24,000 nt of DNA from NCBI GenBank assembly GCA_028711165.1, contig JAQTST010000001.1:394986-418985 (forward strand), written 5' to 3'. Below, one piece after another: positions 2-21,157 of the stretch. Positions within the stretch are counted from its first letter, which is position 1; each line of letters starts with the position of its first letter. This stretch comes from Candidatus Nanoarchaeia archaeon. GTDB taxonomy: Archaea; Nanobdellota; Nanobdellia; Pacearchaeales; GW2011-AR1. The position numbers and the translations under genes are program-made. Under the pieces are notes generated by a model, which saw nothing but the letters and a program-made list of their open reading frames with translations, did no database searches and was not told the DNA's origin.

Positions 2-1423
2 CAAGATGGATATCTTGGAAATGGCAAGGGGGAAGAAAATACAAATTATAGTTTTACATACTGGTTTAATTCAACTGTAATTCCAAACAGCACTGATTCG
101 AGAATATTTAATCTTACAGCAGAAGTTGATTTCTATGACATTAAAGCAGGACAGAGGTATACATTTATTTCAGATTCCGGATATCTCATGAATGTTTCAT
201 TACCTGAAGGAGCTTCGTGGATTTTTAAGAATTGTTCATGGAATAAATCAAATCAATTATATCTTTGTGGTGTTCCCCAATTTGCAGGAGGGACTTATGA
301 AGAAGCATTAATTGGCGATACAATTAATATAACACAGAGCATTTTGAAATGGCTATATCAAGATGATTCTCTCGAAATAAAATCTTATCCTTATAATATG
401 ACTTATCTTCCAATGAATACTTCTGATAACAAGAAATCTTATGCAATAATTGAAAAAAGAAATTCAAGCCTGATTTATAATTTAACTTTTCCATATAATA
501 CAAAAGTTTGGAATTTCATAAATAAAACAATTGAATGTGAAAATTGTAACTCTTTAAATTTATCTTTTAATCGCTATGAAATGAAAATGTTTTTCATAAA
601 TATTTCCAATATTTCTCTGACAGAAGGAAATATCGCTGAAGTAAGGGATGATTCAAATAATATAGTCGACGATAATGTAGAAGTCTGGTTTACTGGCATG
701 TCAGATAATTCCACAAAACATATCGACAGTAATTTAACTTCGGCTATCAACTTAACTGCAAACTTTTACGTCGATAGCTGTTCTATTTCTTCAATATATT
801 ATGTCTCTGAAACAGGAACATATTCCAAAACTTATGGTTCTTCTGAATGGAACTGTTCGGGGAATATGGTAACATTAAATATAACAGGAATAGAACCTGC
901 GACAGGAAGCAATATGATTTATATAACTTATAAAACATCACCGGCTGAAGAAGATATAGAAACAACAACCGGAAATCCACGGCCGAAAAATATTACAATT
1001 AATAATGGTTCAATTTCTCCGGAGAAAGATTATGTTTACAAAGTTCATAAATTTGATAAAATCTTTTTCATTCTTAACAATGTTACGTATACTATTACCA
1101 TAACTCAAATAGGAAATGGTTTTATTGATTTGGAGATAGAACCTTCCTCAATTGATTTGGCTTTACAAATTAATGAATCAAGAGATATTGATTTAAATGG
1201 AGATAAACCGGATGATATTTCAATAACATTAATTGATATAAAATCTGGAACAGCAAAAATTTCCATAAAATTATTGGAAAATAAAGAACTTCCGTACTCT
1301 GAAAAACCAGAAGAAAAACTCATCAGCACCGAAGATAAAATAGTGTTTATTCTTGGATTTTTAATAATATTAATCCTTATTATAATCATTTTACTGAAAA
1401 TTAAGGTTCATTCTGATAAATAG
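2..1423 (+). CDS. Cell-surface glycoprotein-like protein, 5'-truncated by the window edge, with a C-terminal transmembrane anchor
   Basis: The reading frame is open from nt 2, with no stop before the listed ATG at 188, so the ORF enters from upstream. I hand-counted 25 N-x-S/T sequons in the 473 translated residues. The protein is Asn/Ser/Thr/Ile-rich and ends in the hydrophobic helix IVFILGFLIILILIIIILL followed by the basic tail KIKVHSDK. No family recognised. Confidence 0.6.
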   Translation, partial: QDGYLGNGKGEENTNYSFTYWFNSTVIPNSTDSRIFNLTAEVDFYDIKAGQRYTFISDSGYLMNVSLPEGASWIFKNCSWNKSNQLYLCGVPQFAGGTYEEALIGDTINITQSILKWLYQDDSLEIKSYPYNMTYLPMNTSDNKKSYAIIEKRNSSLIYNLTFPYNTKVWNFINKTIECENCNSLNLSFNRYEMKMFFINISNISLTEGNIAEVRDDSNNIVDDNVEVWFTGMSDNSTKHIDSNLTSAINLTANFYVDSCSISSIYYVSETGTYSKTYGSSEWNCSGNMVTLNITGIEPATGSNMIYITYKTSPAEEDIETTTGNPRPKNITINNGSISPEKDYVYKVHKFDKIFFILNNVTYTITITQIGNGFIDLEIEPSSIDLALQINESRDIDLNGDKPDDISITLIDIKSGTAKISIKLLENKELPYSEKPEEKLISTEDKIVFILGFLIILILIIIILLKIKVHSDK

Positions 1424-7092: not shown

Positions 7093-8406
7093 TTATTTCT
7101 TGGTCTCTAACGGAGAAAAAATATACTTGAGGATTGCACCAATTGTACCAATAATCTTCTCTCCCAGACTATTATAATCATGCCATGTATAATACATGTC
7201 CCTCGTGAATCTTTCTTCTTTTGTTGAATATTCCTCTGGATATTTAACAGAATCAATGGAATATTCTTTCTCTAAAGTTTTTTCCATTCTTGAACGATAT
7301 CTGCTTTTAATTTCACTTTCAGAAGAAAATTCCGAGCCATACAAATCTTTCAACATAGTTGATAGTTTTTCTTTTTGCTTAGATATTAATGAAGCAATTT
7401 CCTCTATTTTTGGCATTTCTTTTGCTTTCTTTTTCACAAAATTACCAATAATGGGAATATTCTCTTTTACATGTATTATTTGATATGTTTTGGAAGAAGC
7501 CAAATTTAGTATATAATCAAGATCTCTTATGCTGACATTTAATTTTTCATAAAATTCTTTTTGCTTGTCTTTGTCAGAGAATTCTAAAAGTTTTCTTAGT
7601 TTTATACCAAGCATCCCAGAAGGATTTTCATTAAATAATTTCTGTTTCTCTTTAACCAATTCCTCAAAATAAGAATTAACATCTTCAGTCAAATTTTGAA
7701 TATATTTTCTTTCCTGATAAAAATGTCTCGTTAAACTTGCTGGGACTTTTTTCAATAATTTATCTAAATATTTATTCAAATATTCTTGAGGATTAAACTG
7801 TTTTATCTTAGAAAAAAACCCATTAACTGTTTCATTTACCTTTTTTATCAATATGTCTTCTAAACCAAATCCTTCAGAAAATTTATCTTCTACAATATCC
7901 TTTTTTGTTTCTAATATTTTTTCTTTTGATTTTATATTTGTCCCATACAATCCATTAATTGAAATAATTACTTCCTCTTTTTCTTTATTTATTTCTCTGC
8001 TGATCTTTGCAAGTCCTTCTTGTAAATTACTGTTCACATTTTCAATGTTGTCGACGATAGATTCGACATATTTTTTCTGTTTTTCTGGATTGGAGAAAGA
8101 AATTAATTCTCTTGGAGTTATGTCCAGCACTCTTGTAAAATCCTGTTCAATAGAATCTTTGATAAACTGATACTTTTCTTCTTTTAATTCTTTTAACCAT
8201 CCGTCTATATTTTGCACAGCATTGGTTATTCCAGACCATTCTGGCTTAATTTTTTCAGAAAACTGTTGCGGAACCTGATAAAAAAAATTATCAATCCTGC
8301 AGAATTTTTCCATTAGATTAAATTTAGATAAAGAACTAAATGATTTATCTAATAATCTTATTGATTGGTCTTTTAATATGTTTTCTAAATCAAATTCTAA
8401 TTTCAT
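7093..8406 (-). CDS. Hypothetical Lys/Glu-rich, predicted all-alpha (coiled-coil) protein, 437 aa
   Basis: Long uninterrupted ORF with ATG at 8406. Heptad-like K/E/L/I-rich sequence throughout. No motif I can assign to a family. Markedly AT-rich: sampled 60-nt lines are about 20% G+C. Confidence 0.6.
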   Translation of the reverse strand: MKLEFDLENILKDQSIRLLDKSFSSLSKFNLMEKFCRIDNFFYQVPQQFSEKIKPEWSGITNAVQNIDGWLKELKEEKYQFIKDSIEQDFTRVLDITPRELISFSNPEKQKKYVESIVDNIENVNSNLQEGLAKISREINKEKEEVIISINGLYGTNIKSKEKILETKKDIVEDKFSEGFGLEDILIKKVNETVNGFFSKIKQFNPQEYLNKYLDKLLKKVPASLTRHFYQERKYIQNLTEDVNSYFEELVKEKQKLFNENPSGMLGIKLRKLLEFSDKDKQKEFYEKLNVSIRDLDYILNLASSKTYQIIHVKENIPIIGNFVKKKAKEMPKIEEIASLISKQKEKLSTMLKDLYGSEFSSESEIKSRYRSRMEKTLEKEYSIDSVKYPEEYSTKEERFTRDMYYTWHDYNSLGEKIIGTIGAILKYIFSPLETKK

Positions 8407-11980: not shown

Positions 11981-12092
11981 GGGTGCATAGGCTAATGGTA
12001 GACTGGCTGCCTCCAGAGCAAATCTCTGAGATTTCCTCTCTCCGCATTTGCAGAGAGAGCAGCATATCGGGGTTCGATTCCTCGTGCGCCCA
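11981..12092 (+). tRNA. tRNA-Trp (anticodon CCA) with a ~41-nt intron at the canonical 37/38 position
   Basis: Acceptor GGGTGCA/TGCGCCC (one G:U) with A73. D arm GGCT-AATGGTA-GACT (one mismatch). Anticodon stem GCTGC, completed by GCAGC (12059-12063) after the intron. Loop CTCCAG.A gives CCA. T arm CGGGG-TTCGATT-CCTCG. An oligo-T run (TTTTT) follows immediately after position 12092. Confidence 0.85.
12017..12057 (+). other. tRNA-Trp intron (boundaries +/-1 nt because of flanking A residues)
   Basis: Removing this segment restores the anticodon stem GCTGC/GCAGC. Internal self-complementarity is present: GCAAAT/ATTTGC, AAATCT/AGATTT and CTCTCT/AGAGAG. Confidence 0.7.
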
Positions 12093-12118: not shown

Positions 12119-13174
12119 TTATTCTTTTAAATGGCTTATCTTTTCCAGCATCTCGTTAATTTTTTCCTCTTCGAAAAAGGGAATTAAATCTTCTTTTTTA
12201 AGTTCAAGAATTGCCACTAAATTTTTGAAATTTTTGATTAAAGTTCCCGCTTCTTTTTCTGAAATTCCTGCTCTTCCAAGAGTTCTGTGCCCTTTTGAAG
12301 TTATGTCGCTATCTTCTGATAAACCGAGACATTGTTTTATATTTTCAAGTTCGAGAAGCTCATCGTAACTCAGTACAGAAAGAATTTTTTTAGAACGACT
12401 CAATCCAAGCCGGGTGTAATCTCTTATGACGTCGTCGATTTCTTTTTCAACTCTGTAAAGAATTTCTTTCAGTCTTGATTTTACTATTGTTCCCTCTGCT
12501 CCTAATTCGATGATATACCCTTTCAATGTTTCTGAAATTTTTATAATCATAATTCCTCTCTGGATTAACAAAAGAGATTTTGCAAGTGCAGGTCTTTTTT
12601 TTAGCTCTTCTCTGTCTAACTCATTTTTATTTTTTTCAAAAACTTCTTTGTGCTTTTCAAGAATCTGGAGAACTTCTGTTGCTCTCCTGATTATATCACT
12701 CGTGCTTCTGATAACATATTTTATGTTCTTGTAAAAAAGTGCAATCTCATCTCTTCGCTGAGAGACTGTTATAACGACGGTTTCTGCCTGTTTTGCTGTT
12801 CTTTCTGCTGCTTTGTGCCTTGTACCTGTCTCATTTGAAGCGATTGAATTATTCGGCGTCAGAAGAACATTTGCATGCAGAATTTTTTTCAAATCTTTTG
12901 AGAGAATTATTGCTCCGTCCATTTTGCTCAGTTCAATAAGCCTTTGGGGAGTTACTCTTGAATTTATCTTGAAACCTCCCTCGAAAATATTCTCTGTAAA
13001 TTCATTGTAGGCGACAATCAGTCCCCCTGTTTTTGCTTTCTGGATTCCTTCAACTGCCGAGCGAATAGAAGTTCCCGGAGAAATAATTTTCAATATATCT
13101 GTGATTTCTTCTTTCTTGACTTCTTTTTTGCCTTCAACGAGCCTTACCTGGATCTCCTTTTTTTCCTCTTCCAT
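12119..13174 (-). CDS. disA: DisA-type diadenylate cyclase (DAC domain + linker + C-terminal HhH)
   Basis: DAC motifs are present: GGLIVAYNE, MDGAIILSKD, ETGTRHKAAERTAKQAETVVITVSQRRDEIALFYKN. A long helical linker follows. C-terminal HhH-like GRAGISEKEAGTLIKNFKNLVAIL. Start set to the ATG at 13174 (GGAG 8 nt upstream); the ORF-track start at 13195 is a TTG. Confidence 0.85.
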   Translation of the reverse strand: MEEEKKEIQVRLVEGKKEVKKEEITDILKIISPGTSIRSAVEGIQKAKTGGLIVAYNEFTENIFEGGFKINSRVTPQRLIELSKMDGAIILSKDLKKILHANVLLTPNNSIASNETGTRHKAAERTAKQAETVVITVSQRRDEIALFYKNIKYVIRSTSDIIRRATEVLQILEKHKEVFEKNKNELDREELKKRPALAKSLLLIQRGIMIIKISETLKGYIIELGAEGTIVKSRLKEILYRVEKEIDDVIRDYTRLGLSRSKKILSVLSYDELLELENIKQCLGLSEDSDITSKGHRTLGRAGISEKEAGTLIKNFKNLVAILELKKEDLIPFFEEEKINEMLEKISHLKE

Positions 13175-13273
13175 TCTAAAATCTCCGAAACACAACAGGA
13201 ATATATTTTGTCTTTAAATATTTTTATCTGTTTTTTTAAATAACTTTAAAAATAAAATCGTCGATATATAACG

Positions 13274-14683
13274 ATGAAAAGGGGGAAAAAAATTTCTGAA
13301 AATTGCCTGAAAGAAGAAACAAAAAAAATTAGTGTAAAAGAAGGTGTTGCCTACAGTTTCATGGACGGGGCAGGGCTGAGATATATCACACCTTATGCTC
13401 TTGCAATCGGCGCGAATAATGCACAGATAGGTTTTCTTACTTCAATTCCGTCGCTGTTGGGAAATTTCTCGCAATTTTTTACTTCGAAAGCTGTTGAAAA
13501 ATATCCAAGAAAAAAAATAGTCGCAGTGAGCATTTTCCTGCAAGCTTTAATGTGGATACCTTTGATTATACTTGGTTATCTATTTTTCTATAAAAATTTT
13601 GACCACGGACTTAGCGCGACGCTGATGATTGTTTTTTTTACATTGATGGTTCTATTCGGAGCTTTTGCATCTCCTGCCTGGAATTCTCTGATTAAAGATA
13701 TCGTCGATAAATGCAGGGGAGAATATTTTGGAAAGAGAAACAGGATTCTTGGAATCACTTCAATTTTAGTCATGCTTGCCTGCGGTTTTATACTTAATTA
13801 TTTCACCAAGATAAATTTACTTCTGGGATTCGGAATAATTTTTGGAATTGCATTTATTGCAAGATTGATATCCGGATATTTCATGACTAAATATTATGAA
13901 CCAAAACTCAAACTCGAAAAAGGATATTATTTCAGTTTCTGGGAATTTATCAAAGGTGTTCCGAAAAGCAACTTCGGAAAATTCACAGTATTCATCGGGC
14001 TGATAAGTTTTGCAGCGTCGATAGCATCGCCTTTTTTTGCAGTTTATCTGCTCAGAGATTTGAATCTGAGTTATTTAATCTGGACTGTTGTCGTTGTCTT
14101 TAATTCAATCGGAACGTTTTTGTTCATGCCGTTGTGGGGAAAATTCGCTGACAAATACGGCAACCTCAAGGTTTTGAAATGGACAGGTGCATTCGTCGGG
14201 GCGATACCTTTGTTATGGGTTGGAGTCATGTTTGTCTTACCAATAAATGTTCCATTGGTAATTGTTTATCTTAGTGCTATTGAACTTTTCTCGGGATTCA
14301 TCTGGGCAGGATTTAACTTGTCAGCAACTAATTTTATTTACGACGCAGTAAGCAACCAGAAAACTGCTTTATGTATTTCTTATTATAACATAATCAACGG
14401 AATAGGGGTTTTTATCGGTGCAAGCATTGGAGGACTTTTAGCTTCTATGAATTTTAATATTTTTGGAATTGGGCCTCTTTTATTTATATTCTTAATAAGC
14501 GGAATTGCAAGATATCTGATTTATCTATTTATGATTCCCAAGATAAAGGAAGTCAGAGGAGTAAAGGAATACCACGACGGAGAATTTAAAAAAGAACTTA
14601 AAAAAATGCTGGTGCCTCCGCCATTCAGATTCTTAAAACACCATCACACATCTACCAGTTCTTTTATTGTTCCGAAATTGTAA
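13274..14683 (+). CDS. Major facilitator superfamily transporter (about 12 TM helices)
   Basis: Alternating hydrophobic helices throughout. MFS-like loop motifs are present (GKRNRILG after TM2-3; PLWGKFADKYGN in the second half). Confidence 0.8.
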   Translation: MKRGKKISENCLKEETKKISVKEGVAYSFMDGAGLRYITPYALAIGANNAQIGFLTSIPSLLGNFSQFFTSKAVEKYPRKKIVAVSIFLQALMWIPLIILGYLFFYKNFDHGLSATLMIVFFTLMVLFGAFASPAWNSLIKDIVDKCRGEYFGKRNRILGITSILVMLACGFILNYFTKINLLLGFGIIFGIAFIARLISGYFMTKYYEPKLKLEKGYYFSFWEFIKGVPKSNFGKFTVFIGLISFAASIASPFFAVYLLRDLNLSYLIWTVVVVFNSIGTFLFMPLWGKFADKYGNLKVLKWTGAFVGAIPLLWVGVMFVLPINVPLVIVYLSAIELFSGFIWAGFNLSATNFIYDAVSNQKTALCISYYNIINGIGVFIGASIGGLLASMNFNIFGIGPLLFIFLISGIARYLIYLFMIPKIKEVRGVKEYHDGEFKKELKKMLVPPPFRFLKHHHTSTSSFIVPKL

Positions 14684-15381
14684 ACTTCGTTTTTGCCGGC
14701 AGCATATACCACAAAATTTTTCAGATTCCTTTTAGGAATTATTGAAAAATAATCTTCATATTCATGCTCGATTGAATTTATTGTTGTCCCTTCAATTGTT
14801 GCGAGAAAACTCGGAAGAATAATAATATTTTTTCTTTTGAATTTGCCGACGAGAAAACACTTGTATTTCTCTCTTTTCACTCCTGATTCTTCTGCGAGGA
14901 TTATTGACGGATGAAGATGTCCGATGACAATCGTTTTTATCTTTTCACCAAATATCTCCGGAAAAAGTTTATGCCCGTGGGTGAAAGCCAAATCACCGTC
15001 GATAAAATAATCCTTTAGCCTGTCTGAAAAAGAGTAATCAATTGTATCGTGATTTCCTTTTATGAGAATTACCTTTTTGTCGTCGATATATCCTTTCAGA
15101 AATTTCAGAATATCATTGAAATAATTTTTTTCTTTCCATTCATATGAAAAAGAATGCTTGATATCTCCGATAAAAACAATTTTTTTCAGTTTGAGATTTC
15201 TCTTTTTTATTTCTTCGAAAATTTCTGCCAGTTCTTTTTTTACTTCTTCAATCTGCATTTCAGGGACGAGAACTCCTGACTGCTGGAGCTTGTATTCAAA
15301 TCCGAGATGCAAATCTCCGACTGCAAGAATTCCCTTTTCAGGGAAAAATATTGTTTTTCCGAGGAAGATATAATTTTTCAT
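14644..15381 (-). CDS. Binuclear metallophosphoesterase (COG1407 / MPE-like, calcineurin fold)
   Basis: Metal-ligand motifs appear in order: VGDLHLG, IGDIKHS, KGNHD, THGH, IGHLHP. Start moved to the ATG at 15381, because the ORF-track TTG at 15393 lies inside the tRNA-Arg acceptor stem. Confidence 0.85.
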   Translation of the reverse strand: MKNYIFLGKTIFFPEKGILAVGDLHLGFEYKLQQSGVLVPEMQIEEVKKELAEIFEEIKKRNLKLKKIVFIGDIKHSFSYEWKEKNYFNDILKFLKGYIDDKKVILIKGNHDTIDYSFSDRLKDYFIDGDLAFTHGHKLFPEIFGEKIKTIVIGHLHPSIILAEESGVKREKYKCFLVGKFKRKNIIILPSFLATIEGTTINSIEHEYEDYFSIIPKRNLKNFVVYAAGKNEVYNFGTIKELVDV

Positions 15382-15382
15382 A

Positions 15383-15529
15383 TGCCCCTGCAAGGATTTG
15401 AACCTTGGTCACAAGCTTTTCGCGCATTCTTTGAAAAATAGTTTCTTTCTTCAAAGCCTAATTCTTTCTTTTCTAAAGAAAGAAGTGGCACCGCAAGCTC
15501 GCATTCTATCCAGACTGAACTACAGAGGC
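15383..15529 (-). tRNA. tRNA-Arg (anticodon GCG) with a 73-nt intron at position 37/38
   Basis: Minus-strand fold. Acceptor GCCTCTG/CAGGGGC (one G:U) with A73. D arm GTTC-AGTCTGGATA-GAAT. Anticodon stem CGAGC/GCTTG is restored after intron removal. Loop TTGCGG.A gives GCG. T arm CAAGG-TTCAAAT-CCTTG. No encoded CCA. Confidence 0.8.
15418..15490 (-). other. tRNA-Arg intron (73 nt)
   Basis: Lies between G37 (15491) and A38 (15417). Contains the 9-bp hairpin TTCTTTCTT/AAGAAAGAA, the 7-bp hairpin CTTTGAA/TTCAAAG, and a 3' segment CGCGA able to pair with the anticodon-loop TTGCG (the anticodon-intron helix expected for a splicing substrate). Confidence 0.7.
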
Positions 15530-16313: not shown

Positions 16314-16709
16314 ATGAAAATATATGCGCGTTCGATAGAGAAAGATACTCTGAAGAATAATTACTTCAGGAGAGTTTTGTTTACTGGAAAGCACGCTCAA
16401 CTTGTTGTGATGTCTTTGCTTCCAGGAGAAGAAATTGGAAATGAAATACATAAACATGTTGACCAGTTTTTCAGACTTGAACAGGGCGAGGCAAAATTTG
16501 TTCTGCATAACGGGAAAGAGAAACATATCGTGGGAAATGGCGACGCTGTTATTGTGCCTGCAGGAACCTGGCATAACGTAATAAATAATTCTAAGACGAA
16601 GAAATTGAAATTGTATACGATTTATTCGCCACCAAATCATCCGCCCGGAAGGAAGCAGAAGACGAAAGCGGAAGCGGAGAGGGCTGAGAAGAGGGAACGG
16701 AAACATTAA
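16314..16709 (+). CDS. Cupin-domain protein with a basic C-terminal tail
   Basis: Cupin motifs GEEIGNEIHKHVDQFFRLEQGEA and GDAVIVPAGTWHNVIN. The tail KQKTKAEAERAEKRERKH is Lys/Arg/Glu-rich. Confidence 0.8.
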   Translation: MKIYARSIEKDTLKNNYFRRVLFTGKHAQLVVMSLLPGEEIGNEIHKHVDQFFRLEQGEAKFVLHNGKEKHIVGNGDAVIVPAGTWHNVINNSKTKKLKLYTIYSPPNHPPGRKQKTKAEAERAEKRERKH

Positions 16710-17651
16710 TTACAAAATCAGTTTTTTCTCAAATACATAATAGTATATACTTTTCATTACGGTTAATATTAAAAGAATTATCTCCATAGATGAATCTTTC
16801 TCTATCTTCCATAATTCTAATATAGTCTTTTGAACTTTATGAGAATCTGGATTTCTGAAAGATCCAATAAAATGACACATTATTCGATGTTCTGATAAAA
16901 TTATTAAATTTTTTTTTGATGCAAGAACATCAGCAACTTCTCCAATCCCATTACTATTCTCTAAATTTATATTTTTATCCTTACCTATCCTTCTTAGAAA
17001 AGATTCAAATGCCCCCGCGGCATCATCTATAGAGAGATTTATTAATGAGTCGGATAATAATTTTCTTTCTGGGTCTGTGATATAATTAAATCCTCCTTGT
17101 CCAAGTTTTTCTGAAATAAAAATTTGAGATTCAAAATTATTATTTATTTTTGAGATTAGACTATTAATATATTCTATATTTGGTTTCGAATTTGAAAATA
17201 ACATTGTCAATGAATCTTTTGAAAGCCCAGTTAATCCAAGATATTTACAAAAATTTGTAAAAGTTTTAATGATTATTTTTTCATTAGAAGAATTCAAATC
17301 AAATACAACTTTAGTTTTTCTAACTGAATCTTCAATTAAGTTATCTTTTAAAATATAATCGGCTAACAAAATAAATGGCTTATAATTTAGAAGAGCTTCT
17401 CGAAATAAAATTTGAAAATTGCTTCTAAATTTTGGAAGAAGTAATGCACAATATTGGGATAAAAAAATTTTTTCATCTTTCTCTTCAAATAATCCTAACT
17501 GAATCCCCATAATTATCGCTCTTTTTGTATATTGTGAAGTTCTGTCAATATAACTTGCTAAATAATCAATATTTCCTTCTTTTTTTGATAAAGCTTCAAT
17601 ACAAGAAACTATTGCTTCGGCAGTAATTTCAGGAATTACTTGCTCTTCCAT
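16710..17651 (-). CDS. Hypothetical protein with a C-terminal HEPN domain (Ymh/TIGR02391-like, Rx4H motif) and an N-terminal wHTH-like region
   Basis: The C-terminal ~110 aa read AAGAFESFLRRIG...GIGEVADVLA...HFIGSFRNPDSHKV...MEIILLILTVMKSIY. This reproduces the layout of Ymh-type HEPN domains, including the G..RNP.sH catalytic motif. Start set to the ATG at 17651 (AGGTGA SD just upstream); the ORF-track start at 17657 is a GTG. Very AT-rich. Confidence 0.65.
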   Translation of the reverse strand: MEEQVIPEITAEAIVSCIEALSKKEGNIDYLASYIDRTSQYTKRAIIMGIQLGLFEEKDEKIFLSQYCALLLPKFRSNFQILFREALLNYKPFILLADYILKDNLIEDSVRKTKVVFDLNSSNEKIIIKTFTNFCKYLGLTGLSKDSLTMLFSNSKPNIEYINSLISKINNNFESQIFISEKLGQGGFNYITDPERKLLSDSLINLSIDDAAGAFESFLRRIGKDKNINLENSNGIGEVADVLASKKNLIILSEHRIMCHFIGSFRNPDSHKVQKTILELWKIEKDSSMEIILLILTVMKSIYYYVFEKKLIL

Positions 17652-18495
17652 CTTCACCTAAAGACTTCAATTCTTTTATTAATTCAGCTACCTTCTTAGA
17701 AATTATGATTACATCTGACTTTTCATCTATCTCTAAATTAATATTAAAAATAAAGGGATAATTTGATTTCAATAAATCAGGCAATTTAATTTGCGTAGAA
17801 GTTGGAGATATTTCATTTTTCTCGATAGCTAAATTTTTAACATTCTTATTTTCTTGAATGGATTTTATTTCTTCTGATTTTAATGATAAATTGGAATCAC
17901 TAAGTTTATATTTTTTTGTTGTTTCATCAAATTCTAGAATATTAGCATATTCCAGATAAGTTATAAGTTGAGATAATGCTGTTTGATGATAAGTTTTATC
18001 TGCTTCGCAATACTTCCCTAAACTGCTAATGAGTTCTTCCTCATTCATTTCTGGTTGTAATTTAAATAATTTTAAAGTATATTCTCCAAACCAGGTTGGC
18101 AATATAATTTTTTTAAAGAATTCTCCAGCCCCTTCAGAGTTCCATTCTAATTCATTACAAAATTCTATAGTTTCTTTAGTAGGTAAATAAGTATAATTCT
18201 TTTCTGCAATTAACATATTTATTTTTTGAAAAAAAGCAAGAGCCCCACTAACTATTGTAAAATGCATGCCTGTAATTGGTGCTACATCCTTAGCAGAAAC
18301 AGGATTTTTTCCTTTATTACTTGAAATATTTAATGCCTTAAGTATTTTAATTTGTTTTTCTACAGATGATCTTCCATCTGGAAGTGGAAACTTAGTATCT
18401 CTAGATTGACGAGTTCTTTTGTTTTCATTAATAACCTCTTCTTTTTTTTCTTCAGAAATATTCTCAATTTCATTAGGTTCTAAATTTTCTAACAT
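17629..18495 (-). CDS. Hypothetical protein with two winged-helix-like modules; partner of the HEPN gene
   Basis: ATG at 18495. Acidic N-terminus, then VEKQIKILKALN...VSAKDVAPITGMHFTIVSGALAFFQKINMLIAEKNYTYLPT and ...ALSQLITYLEYANILEFDETTKKYKL, both with wHTH-like helix-turn-helix-wing patterns. Its 3' end overlaps the HEPN gene by 23 nt. No family recognised. Confidence 0.55.
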   Translation of the reverse strand: MLENLEPNEIENISEEKKEEVINENKRTRQSRDTKFPLPDGRSSVEKQIKILKALNISSNKGKNPVSAKDVAPITGMHFTIVSGALAFFQKINMLIAEKNYTYLPTKETIEFCNELEWNSEGAGEFFKKIILPTWFGEYTLKLFKLQPEMNEEELISSLGKYCEADKTYHQTALSQLITYLEYANILEFDETTKKYKLSDSNLSLKSEEIKSIQENKNVKNLAIEKNEISPTSTQIKLPDLLKSNYPFIFNINLEIDEKSDVIIISKKVAELIKELKSLGEDGRASNS

Positions 18496-18548
18496 ATAAA
18501 TTTATATAAAAAATATCTCTTTTTAAGAATTATTGCCTCTAATCACTT

Positions 18549-18612
18549 ATATTCTTCGTATGCAACTCATTTCATTCGCTTCCTGTCTTCATATTCTTCG
18601 TATGTAACTCAT
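18549..18612. repeat. 22-bp direct repeat (21/22 identical), copies at 18549-18570 and 18591-18612, straddling the Lhr stop codon
   Basis: ATATTCTTCGTATGCAACTCAT versus ATATTCTTCGTATGTAACTCAT, read directly from the sequence. Copy 2 encodes the helicase C-terminal residues HELHTKN. Copy 1 lies just 3' of the TGA (18572-18574). Confidence 0.75.
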
Positions 18613-21157
18613 GCATCCTCTTTAGAAATGCCTGCTTGTCCTCTATCTTGATTAAATCGCTTTGTCCTTCAAGAAGAATTCCGATGGCGAACGGAGATGG
18701 GACATCGACGTCCCTGATTTTTAATTTTACTCTTCCCTCTGATATCCACTGAAGAATAATTTTAGCATTTTCAATGTCCATTAAATCTTCAAGCACTTCT
18801 CTTCTTGCTTCGCGGAGGATTGGAAATTCAGACGAGATTTTTCTGACAGCAGCGAGGACAAAATGGCTTTTCATATTCTGCTTTCCGACGCTTCTTTTTA
18901 CTCCCTTGTAAGTTCTCAAAATCATCAGCGAACGGCTGGCACAATGCCTGAACCTTCTCGCGAGAACATCTGTCTTTTCAATTGCCTCTTTCAAAACTTC
19001 CTCTAAATTTTCCGGCTTGATAAAATTCATAACTTTCTCTATATTCATTTTTTCCCCTGCGATGTAAAAACTATTATCATTTATTCCAAGTTCAATATCT
19101 CTGCCTCCTCCTCTTCCCAAAAGAAAACCAATTGCCCTCGACAAAGCGTCATTGACTCTTCTTCCGTACATAGAATGAAAAATAAGATAATTCTTCTGCG
19201 ACTTGTATCTCTCAACCAAAAGAATGCTAGAATTTGGAATCTCAAGAAAGTTATGCTGTTCCTTGAAATAATTGTAAATCGCTTCTGCTGTAGAATCCTC
19301 GACGTAAAGTGTTTCTTTAATCAAACTTATAATTTCTGATTTCTTTGCTTTGCTCTTAAATTTCTCACTCATTAAACTTCTGAACTTATTAATCTCCATC
19401 GCAGAATCGAAACTCAACGGCAGCATTTCTGAAAACCACGACGGGATAGTCGGAGAACGCTGAATATCTGCCTTGACATAAACATTCATTCCTTTAGTAT
19501 ACATGTAAAGATATTTTTTTCCTCCTAAAACAAATACGTCTCCTTTTTTCATTCTCTCCAAAAATCCTTCATCAATTGCACCAACTGGCTCTCCTGACGG
19601 CGCAATCTTCACAGTTATGAAAGACTCGTCAGGAATTGTTCCGATGTTTGTAAGATACATGACTCTCGCCATTTTTCCTTTTTTACCAATCTGTTTTGTT
19701 TTTGCATCATACCAAATTTTTGCGTAGACATTAGTTTTCTCGAGAGCATAATCTCCAGCAAGATAACTTATAACGTCGAAGAAATCGTTTCTTGTCAAAT
19801 TTGAATAACAGTAACTTTTCTTCACCAAAGAAAAAAGCTCGTCGATGTCGCAGATTTTATAAATAGCCATCCCAAATATTTGCTGACTCAAAACATCGAG
19901 ACAATTCTTGGGGAAATAAATTCTGTTGATTTTTTTCTCAACCATTTCTTTCTGGATAACAGCGCACTCGACTAAGTCATCTCTTCCTGTAACAATGAAT
20001 CTTCCCTTTGCTGTTTCGTGAAGCTTGTGTCCTGCTCTTCCTAATCTCTGCAATGCTCTCGCACTTGATTTCGGACTTCCTAACATTATAACTAAATCAA
20101 TAAAACCAATATCTATCCCCAATTCAAGAGAAGTTGAACAAACAACAACTTTTAATTTTCCGTCTCTCAATCTTTCCTCAATATCAAATCTTGAAGTCTT
20201 GCTCAAAGAAGAATGATGTGCTGCAATATTATCGTCGCCGTATTCTGTCGGGAAATTATCTTTCAAATGATTTACAACCCGCTCTGTCGCAGAACGCGTG
20301 TTCGTGAAAATCAAAGTTGTCTTGTGCTCTTTTATCAGAGAGTCAACCAGACTATACATATTATTTCCAAAAGTCAATTCGCTGATTAAATCTCCGATAG
20401 TTAAAAGTTGAACATCTAACTTTTTTGTTAGTTTTACTTCTGCTATGAAAACTTCTCTTTCTTTATCTATTCCGACGAGGAATTTTGCAACTTCATCCAG
20501 CGGAGCAATCGTAGCGCTCAATCCAATTTTTACTGGCCAGATTAAACTAACTTCGTTCAGTCTTTCCAATGTCAAACTCAGGTAAACTCCTCTTTTATTG
20601 TCAAGAGCATGAATCTCGTCGACGATGCAGAACTCAACTGCTTTCATGTAATCAACAAACTTTTTCGTTGTCAGAATTATTGCGAGCGATTCAGGAGTCG
20701 TAACTAAAATGTGCGGGGCTTTCCTTGCCATCTTTGCTCGTTCAGAAGTTGTTGTGTCACCTGTCCTCAAACCAACACGAATTTTCTGAAGCTTGATATT
20801 TTTCTCTTCGGCAATCTTGTAAATCTCTTCAAGAGGTTCAATCAAATTTTTGTGAATATCATTGCTAAGTGCTTTCAGGGGAGAAGTATAAACTGCATAA
20901 ATCTTTTCTTCAAGCTGGTTTTTTTCTGCGAGCATGATGAGATAATTAATTATCGCAAGGAAAGATGTCAGAGTTTTCGAACTTCCTGTCGGCGCTGAGA
21001 TAAGAATATTTTTCCTTTCCCAGACATTGAGAACTCCGTACCTCTGAGTAATAGAGAAATCCTTGAATTTTGAAAAAAACCATTCCTTAACAAGAGGATG
21101 AAGCATTTTTTCTATCTCTTTGCCTTCTCTTTCTTCTGCCTGTAAAATTTCTGTCAT
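18572..21157 (-). CDS. lhr: Lhr-type ATP-dependent DEAH-box (SF2) helicase with a C-terminal DEAD-associated domain
   Basis: Motif I ISAPTGSSKT, motif II CIVDEIH, motif III LSAT, motif VI LQRLGRAGH. The ~400-aa C-terminal extension is typical of the Lhr core (WH + domain 4). 861 aa. Confidence 0.9.
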   Translation of the reverse strand: MTEILQAEEREGKEIEKMLHPLVKEWFFSKFKDFSITQRYGVLNVWERKNILISAPTGSSKTLTSFLAIINYLIMLAEKNQLEEKIYAVYTSPLKALSNDIHKNLIEPLEEIYKIAEEKNIKLQKIRVGLRTGDTTTSERAKMARKAPHILVTTPESLAIILTTKKFVDYMKAVEFCIVDEIHALDNKRGVYLSLTLERLNEVSLIWPVKIGLSATIAPLDEVAKFLVGIDKEREVFIAEVKLTKKLDVQLLTIGDLISELTFGNNMYSLVDSLIKEHKTTLIFTNTRSATERVVNHLKDNFPTEYGDDNIAAHHSSLSKTSRFDIEERLRDGKLKVVVCSTSLELGIDIGFIDLVIMLGSPKSSARALQRLGRAGHKLHETAKGRFIVTGRDDLVECAVIQKEMVEKKINRIYFPKNCLDVLSQQIFGMAIYKICDIDELFSLVKKSYCYSNLTRNDFFDVISYLAGDYALEKTNVYAKIWYDAKTKQIGKKGKMARVMYLTNIGTIPDESFITVKIAPSGEPVGAIDEGFLERMKKGDVFVLGGKKYLYMYTKGMNVYVKADIQRSPTIPSWFSEMLPLSFDSAMEINKFRSLMSEKFKSKAKKSEIISLIKETLYVEDSTAEAIYNYFKEQHNFLEIPNSSILLVERYKSQKNYLIFHSMYGRRVNDALSRAIGFLLGRGGGRDIELGINDNSFYIAGEKMNIEKVMNFIKPENLEEVLKEAIEKTDVLARRFRHCASRSLMILRTYKGVKRSVGKQNMKSHFVLAAVRKISSEFPILREARREVLEDLMDIENAKIILQWISEGRVKLKIRDVDVPSPFAIGILLEGQSDLIKIEDKQAFLKRMHELHTKNMKTGSE

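Follow-up and report, generated by a model that had tools for sequence, protein, structure and literature searches.

A HEPN protein encoded with a paralogous winged-helix partner in a DPANN archaeon: a candidate mobile two-gene conflict module

Here we describe a two-gene cassette, composed of genes A and B, within a 24,000-nucleotide stretch of DNA (hereafter the window) from a Candidatus Nanoarchaeia archaeon (contig JAQTST010000001.1, positions 394,986 to 418,985). Protein B very probably carries a HEPN domain with an intact Rx4H catalytic motif. Its N-terminal ~150 residues are predicted to form a nucleic-acid-binding winged-helix module, and protein A bears a paralogous copy of this same module. 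The interpretation that we favour, with somewhat more confidence than doubt, is that the cassette is a mobile, horizontally acquired HEPN conflict module of the toxin-antitoxin (TA) or abortive-infection kind, gated by its paralogous winged-helix partner. Both products were annotated as hypothetical proteins (PHQ66_02465 and PHQ66_02460) on a 623-kb contig of a DPANN metagenome-assembled genome (MAG). Profile searches now place them in a defined family of about 300 clusters, delimited at 50% identity, from both archaea and bacteria. The features on which the argument rests are the following:

17629-18495, minus strand: gene A, 288 amino acids (aa); open reading frame (ORF) call, exact match to NCBI PHQ66_02465.
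16710-17657, minus strand: gene B, 315 aa from a GTG start; ORF call, exact match to NCBI PHQ66_02460.
17629-17651, minus strand: overlap of the A stop and the B start, 23 nt with the ATG start; read from the sequence.
17193-17657, minus strand: shared winged-helix module, B residues 1-155; a MarR/IclR-like winged helix-turn-helix (wHTH) and a helical part matching AAA_assoc_C.
16713-17075, minus strand: HEPN domain, DUF4145-like, B residues 195-315; matches of the family-consensus profile.
16839-16856, minus strand: Rx4H motif RNPDSH, from R268 to H273 of B; translation.
Parts of protein A: disordered residues 1 to ~35; two-wHTH module ~36-200; low-complexity linker ~205-255; strand-plus-helix element ~256-281.

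The HEPN domain of B is recognised at the level of its family. The consensus of the family hidden Markov model (HMM) matches DUF4145 (PF13643) with up to 36 bits (E 7e-9; gathering cut-off 23.1) and the consensus sequences of the sub-families do so with 22-36 bits, while Hypoth_Ymh (PF09509) is matched with 24.5 bits, just under its cut-off of 25. The family consensus also matches HEPN_RiboL-PSP (E 8e-5), HEPN_Apea and HEPN, and all of its HEPN-family matches fall on B residues ~200-310. Among 136 natural members scanned with Pfam, DUF4145 was detected in 24 (best E 6.8e-5) and Abi_C in three. The NCBIfam model TIGR02391 was matched neither by the window protein nor by the consensus. On these scores the domain appears closer to DUF4145 than to Ymh. 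Given a consensus of 22-36 bits, the modest best value of the natural members and a window protein that goes undetected, it would be at best a distant sister group of DUF4145 rather than a member, and seems divergent enough to evade current models. An earlier sequence-only reading of this DNA had announced a clear Ymh/TIGR02391-like HEPN domain: the HEPN assignment stands at the family-profile level, but it is not clear from B alone and DUF4145 scores better than Ymh.

The same reading had singled out RNPDSH as the Rx4H motif of HEPN RNases, and conservation supports this choice. In an alignment of 136 diverse members, H273 is invariant, as is W283, and R268 is kept in at least 90% together with E218, L221, G237 and P94. 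Of the sequences spanning this part of the protein, only two lack an Rx4H or Rx5H motif, whose commonest start, RN, places a polar residue after the arginine; members without Rx4H mostly have Rx5H, and the arginine of the motif is lost in two, P0090 and P0139. Profile searches thus return HEPN families together with a conserved motif of the Rx4-6H type. The AlphaFold2 (AF2) model of B, with a mean predicted local distance difference test score (pLDDT) of 86.5, starts with a winged helix and is all-helical in its C-terminal half, where the helix formed by residues 255-268 ends at R268 and H273 begins the next helix. Foldseek searches with this model against PDB and BFVD gave generic winged-helix matches only. 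At the sequence level, B alone had no match in PDB, and probing PDB with the alignment profiles A1 and A4 or with the C-terminal consensus retrieved only wHTH regulators or noise.

In the family consensus, residues 9-70 are recognised by many wHTH families and residues 46-144 by AAA_assoc_C (PF09821; E 7e-7 to 8e-8); the top Foldseek matches of the winged-helix region of B in PDB are the wHTH proteins MarR, IdeR and Sso10a. Together with the AF2 model, this bears out the wHTH-like N-terminus that had been read in B. For protein A two winged-helix-like modules had been proposed, and its AF2 model indeed shows two H-H-H-E-E winged-helix units, with pLDDT >90 over residues 40-200, as well as a disordered N-terminus and linker and a C-terminal helix. 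The C-terminal strand-plus-helix element (~256-281) is conserved. Protein A has no match in Pfam, NCBIfam, PADLOC or PHROGs. Foldseek searches of its model against PDB retrieve generic tandem wHTH proteins, the best being RPC62, cullin, SelB and MntR at E>=2.6e-3. A kleisin/kite (JetB, MukE, ScpB) or ESCRT-II-like reading was dropped, the Foldseek matches being generic and hits to JetB coming from single family members (E 0.004-0.008). Comparison of the profiles is more informative: hhalign pairs B residues 4-155 with A residues 36-201 (93.5%, E 2e-7), and in hmmsearch the HMM of the B family also picks up the A-type proteins encoded in the loci. By these homologies, A bears a paralogous copy of the N-terminal module of B, the predicted effector.

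Members of the family are rare. A search of 5.8 billion proteins yielded 14 close homologues of B; with a profile, 307 relatives were retrieved at E<=1e-3 (224 at E<=1e-10) from 1.84 billion cluster representatives, nearly all of these relatives being full-length at ~320 aa; the A family comprises 24 proteins. Searches with degenerate patterns derived from the close alignment found one locus in GTDB genomes, none in IMG/VR and three in JGI metagenomes. The distribution is patchy, spanning DPANN, Methanolacinia, Thorarchaeota and Peptococcaceae, and the hosts of the loci include Methanolacinia paynteri, an unclassified archaeon MAG, a Thorarchaeota MAG, a Peptococcaceae bacterium and another bacterial assembly. 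Judged from these searches, the homologues are not housekeeping genes.

Pairing of the two genes was followed in 15 independent loci (the window, L001-L004, L006, L008, L009 and L011-L017; L007 repeats L002, and L005 and L010, which are truncated, stand outside this set). In all 15 an A-family or divergent A-like gene lies directly upstream of B on the same strand, and the products of these A-like genes keep one layout of module, linker and C-terminal strand-helix. In homologous pairs the upstream gene usually overlaps B by 4 nt or is separated from it by a gap of a few nucleotides. The 23-nt overlap given earlier for the window pair is obtained with the start annotated by NCBI (ATG at 17651, 313 aa) and becomes 29 nt if B begins at GTG; an overlap of 23 nt would imply translational coupling. 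The matrices of pairwise identity of A and B are correlated (Mantel r=0.62, p=0.0016), with A diverging faster (34-36% identity vs 45-52% for B). In two of the 15 loci (L009:1222-2119 and L011:7239-8196) B is split into two ORFs, which may reflect either a frameshift or stop, as would arise when a toxic gene decays, or a fault in the assembly. Interrupted genes are often seen among toxin genes.

The pair also occurs within larger operons. A four-gene arrangement, g1-A-g3-B, is found in five metagenomic archaeal loci, and L006 contains g1-A-B. Protein g1 (~445 aa) includes two copies of the module, one of them above the AAA_assoc_C cut-off, and the module of B aligns with g1 residues 181-339 (hhalign 95%, E 3e-8); the possibility that the C-terminus of g1 is a degenerate HEPN domain was rejected (hhalign probability 0.3%). 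In hhalign, protein g3 (~227 aa) is clearly paralogous to A (99.6%, E 8e-25). On these comparisons the window cassette is the minimal, reduced two-gene form of a three- to four-gene operon. In the variant operon of L006 (6655-10578), an additional A-like gene is located downstream of g1-A-B. Its A protein shares 55% identity with those of L004 and L013, its B protein only ~25%, a mismatch which suggests partner exchange between sub-families. In L005 (1347-5568; the same operon as L004:132-3914), genes for a 409-aa Cas1 and a 257-aa protein lie directly upstream of g1-A-g3-B. Judged by its length, this Cas1 could be a solo or casposon-type protein. It was seen upstream of the operon in L005 only; in L004 the upstream side lies beyond the sequence.

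The immediate surroundings of the cassette in the window include the following features:

18572-21157, minus strand: Lhr-type superfamily 2 (SF2) helicase gene, 861 aa, upstream of A and co-oriented with it.
18496-18571, minus strand: spacer from the Lhr stop to the A start, 76 nt, AT-rich, with TTTATATA-like boxes; from the sequence only.
16314-16709: cupin gene, convergent to B, the stop codons abutting.
18549-18570 and 18591-18612 (no strand assigned): 22-bp direct repeat, 21/22 identical, at the right border of the cassette.

The cassette is probably of foreign origin and horizontally acquired. It is the 1.8-kb stretch of lowest G+C in the window, with 26.3% against 33.3% for the window as a whole, 37.2% for the Lhr gene and 40.9% for the cupin gene. 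G+C at third codon positions (GC3) is 15-16% in A and B vs 21-42% in the other 23 genes of the window (36% in Lhr), with gene-level z values of -2.1 and -2.5. The AT-richness noticed by the sequence-only reading is therefore real, but the contrast that it drew (20-25% against 40-45% in the adjacent helicase) was overstated. On the left, the cupin gene (G+C 41%) and gene B (G+C 26%) end back to back, their stop codons touching at 16707-16712 with zero intergenic bases, which makes for a very sharp compositional boundary and leaves no space for terminators. On the right, the helicase gene, correctly placed 76 nt upstream by that reading, encodes a protein with DEAD, Helicase_C, WH_Lhr and DEAD_assoc domains (Pfam); the spacer is presumed from its sequence to contain the promoter/operator region of the cassette.

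The earlier claim that the 22-bp direct repeat bounds the cassette has to be withdrawn. Both copies lie at the 3' end of the Lhr gene, on one side of the cassette, and no copy was found at the left border; the repeat was rejected as a pair of attachment (att) sites for the same reason. The copy within the Lhr 3' end reads ...HELHTKNMKTGSE followed by the stop codon, and the copy just beyond this stop keeps the frame, reading NELHTKNISD (ELHTKN...) and again a stop codon. This duplicated coding end may have been left as a scar when the AT-rich cassette was placed here; alternatively, it may be a small tandem duplication that altered the Lhr C-terminus. Integration at a tRNA gene was likewise rejected. 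An Rfam scan of the window returned tRNAs only, among them two long genes overlooked by ARAGORN (15383-15529, minus strand, 147 nt; 11981-12092, plus strand, 112 nt), both presumably intron-containing. The first lies 1.2 kb to the left and no repeat connects it to the borders of the cassette.

HEPN RNases work as dimers in which the Rx4-6H site is composite, and partners or sensor domains restrain them (PMC3710099; PMC13017515). From the domain content and context of the cassette, we infer that B has RNase activity, that A inhibits it and that the pair has a role in defence or addiction. B would be the HEPN RNase effector, of a DUF4145-like branch, and A its partner, supplied by the overlapping upstream gene. 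A could assemble with B through the shared module, through its own C-terminal strand-helix, or through both, and its binding would either prevent assembly of an active HEPN dimer or cover the active site. A probably also autoregulates the operon, repressing the promoter by means of its winged helices. Loss or displacement of A, or binding of a foreign nucleic acid or protein by the winged helices, would then release B, which would cut cellular RNA and cause growth arrest, a behaviour of the toxin-antitoxin or abortive-infection type. Gating of a HEPN protein by winged helices is plausible in view of the precedent of the type IX retron (bioRxiv 10.64898/2026.07.14.738597). A bolder proposal, which we regard as tentative and on the doubtful side, is that the A-B pair and the g1-A-g3-B operons represent an undescribed class of HEPN immune or conflict systems common to archaea and bacteria, in which the RNase and its regulators, all paralogues built around a single AAA_assoc_C-like winged-helix module, would form a hetero-oligomer that senses foreign nucleic acid and controls the RNase by subunit exchange.

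The genomic context of the loci bears on several competing explanations. Neighbouring genes differ at every locus and no conserved target operon lies beside the pair. Recombinases, transposases or Cas1 are nevertheless often found next to the module, which, with its low GC3, its few and scattered relatives, the interrupted B genes and one copy in a bacterial defence island, speaks for the mobile, accessory character assumed in our favoured interpretation. An unlikely explanation, but one with some contextual support, is that the pair serves a small integrated element as its addiction or stabilisation module, using the same chemistry as that proposed above but selected for retention of the element and not for antiviral protection of the host. 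Recombinase genes are found directly upstream of the module and on the same strand in three loci (a serine recombinase in L003 and tyrosine integrases in L012 and L016), DDE transposases are located nearby in L011 and L013, and in the window the pair forms a lone AT-rich insert, surrounded by housekeeping genes and unaccompanied by other defence genes. Against this, neither a recombinase nor an att or tRNA-linked repeat accompanies the pair in the window; the integrase of L016, at 279 aa, may instead belong to the housekeeping enzymes of the XerA type; and the copy in a Peptococcaceae bacterium (L014:1-13259) lies inside a classical defence island that includes a type I restriction-modification (R-M) system, a 929-aa SMC_N/AAA_21 ATPase, AbiH, a CAP12/Pycsar-type TIR protein and Fic. 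As to whether homologues sit in defence islands, a question raised by the earlier reading, this bacterial copy does so, but the window copy and those of several other loci occur in housekeeping surroundings.

It is quite improbable, in our judgement, that the proteins form a non-toxic regulatory complex that binds nucleic acid and in which the HEPN domain serves for ligand binding, dimerisation or narrow RNA processing, as in proteins of the MtlR type. Winged-helix modules dominate all of the subunits, their best structural and profile matches are transcription regulators, several loci have ordinary metabolic neighbourhoods and the arginine of the motif is missing from P0090 and P0139, all of which would suit such a complex. 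The almost universal retention of the catalytic arginine and histidine, the rare, patchy and compositionally foreign distribution, and the lack of a conserved target operon next to the pair argue against it. Least probable by far is a three-gene system in which the upstream Lhr helicase acts together with the HEPN pair. The genes are co-oriented with a 76-nt spacer, the Lhr protein resembles the DpdJ and BrxHI models of PADLOC, and fusions of DUF4145 to SF2 helicases and restriction endonucleases are known (PMC3710099). However, neither Lhr nor any other conserved helicase adjoins the pair in the other 14 loci, and this synteny led us to reject Lhr as a functional partner. In addition, the helicase scores above the cut-off of NCBIfam PRK13767, a housekeeping-type equivalog (1103 vs 849 bits), and its composition (G+C 37%, GC3 36%) is sharply unlike that of the cassette.

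Several observations weigh against a mobile, partner-gated HEPN conflict module. Ordinary metabolic or housekeeping neighbourhoods surround the pair in the window, L001, L002, L004 and L015, and no copy was found on the viral contigs of IMG/VR. No component matched a PADLOC model: in PADLOC-DB v2, A and B had nothing relevant, the 136 members gave only scattered matches at E>=2e-4, and g1, A, g3 and B of the extended operon had nothing below E 2e-3. Taken alone, B has no match in Pfam, NCBIfam (including TIGR02391), PADLOC or PHROGs, and in its AF2 model pLDDT falls below 50 at residues 273-280, right past the motif. A and B (288 and 315 aa) are much larger than the components of classical type II TA systems. 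Finally, the sample consists of 15 loci, most of them obtained from searches seeded with A or B.

The general idea of a HEPN toxin with a neutralising partner is known already, and HEPN RNases recur as effectors of prokaryotic immunity and of toxin-antitoxin systems; defence in DPANN archaea is poorly charted. The family described here, which is not covered by any Pfam, NCBIfam or PADLOC model, offers a clear catalytic motif, a seemingly obligate partner that shares the module of the effector, and three- to four-gene versions. If it proves to be a defence system, it would introduce a new regulatory logic for HEPN proteins, with a paralogous winged-helix gatekeeper, and could help to mark out defence or mobile islands in archaea; should it turn out to be no more than an addiction module, it would still represent a new TA architecture.

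Beyond the cassette, the window is a housekeeping neighbourhood and contains no defence island. Neighbouring genes encode a histidyl-tRNA synthetase (HisRS), a diphthamide synthase, ScpA, a DisA-like diadenylate cyclase (DAC) protein, a major facilitator superfamily (MFS) transporter, a metallophosphoesterase, the cupin and a class V aminotransferase. The DisA-like protein (12119-13195, minus strand; DAC and DisA-linker domains) is encoded in what is a small DPANN genome. Two further genes of low GC3 (21-23%), at 188-1423 (plus strand) and 7093-8406 (minus strand), have no Pfam match and may be foreign or fast-evolving. The metallophosphoesterase (14644-15393) and Lhr (18572-21157) genes are both on the minus strand, 3.2 kb apart, with the cassette, the cupin gene and two small ORFs resembling membrane proteins between them. 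Genes for Lhr-core and metallophosphoesterase frequently adjoin in other prokaryotes, and the block that separates them here may therefore be an insert.

A search of the literature found no paper describing the architecture of this cassette, and AAA_assoc_C (PF09821) was mentioned once in the searched literature, in an unrelated context. Two known systems were considered as possible homes for the cassette and rejected. It is not a retron: no reverse transcriptase domain is encoded in the window or among the genes of the loci, and the Rfam scan of the window returned no retron non-coding RNA. It does not belong to the Dpd system either, the DpdJ-like and DpdG-like matches reflecting generic Lhr and wHTH similarity (DpdG 20 bits, cut-off 80).

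Among two-gene systems, HEPN-MNT pairs resemble the cassette in consisting of two overlapping, co-transcribed genes, one of which encodes an Rx4-6H HEPN RNase, and in being mobile and patchy. They differ in that A and all the other upstream partners give no nucleotidyltransferase match and have winged helices instead, and the proteins of the cassette are two to three times larger. With type II TA systems the cassette shares an upstream overlapping gene of the DNA-binding type, A having tandem wHTH units, and a pairing maintained in 15/15 loci. The type IX retron also combines a HEPN RNase with an overlapping winged-helix gene, and in Retron-Kva2 the winged-helix protein is wrapped around the HEPN subunit, whose active site stays covered until a trigger arrives (bioRxiv 10.64898/2026.07.14.738597; PMC7736814). 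The gene order is nevertheless reversed, the retron HEPN lacks a canonical Rx4-6H motif, and the retron winged-helix protein has two alpha-beta HEPN-binding domains and one HTH rather than a module also present in the effector; no relationship between the sequences was detected. CARF-wHTH-HEPN proteins of the Csx1/Csm6 type unite a winged helix and a HEPN domain in one polypeptide, as B does, and the family shows weak matches, at the wHTH level, to Csa3/cas_HTH and CasR; unlike these proteins, B has neither a CARF or Rossmann sensor domain nor a conserved CRISPR linkage.

The closest relationships concern the HEPN domain itself. DUF4145 and Ymh are both established HEPN families (PMC3710099). 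Ymh proteins (PF09509/TIGR02391) resemble B in their RN...H-type motif and in the A..E..lR pattern of the first helix, and the B consensus aligns to positions 6-117 of the 119 of the Ymh model; Ymh domains differ in being found alone or fused to paraMORC, AbiJ-NTD or AbiTii (PMC3710099) and not to the winged-helix module seen here. Within DUF4145, RAZR has been shown experimentally to be an abortive-infection RNase (PMC13017515), and the domain is also present in the defence proteins Ishtar and BxaP (bioRxiv 10.64898/2026.07.06.735840; PMC10799925). The DUF4145 defence RNases (RAZR/PD-T7-4, Ishtar, BxaP and some type I HsdR N-termini) are like B in belonging to its best-scoring HEPN family and in keeping the Rx4-6H motif, and the C-terminal consensus of B weakly matches PRK11448, a type I R-M endonuclease model, at its N-terminus. 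In these systems, including RAZR, Ishtar and BxaP as the effectors validated so far, a single gene joins HEPN to a zinc ribbon, a beta-rich domain, HEAT repeats or restriction/helicase modules. In the cassette the fusion is to a wHTH/AAA_assoc_C-like module, and the gene for a paralogous partner invariably lies upstream.

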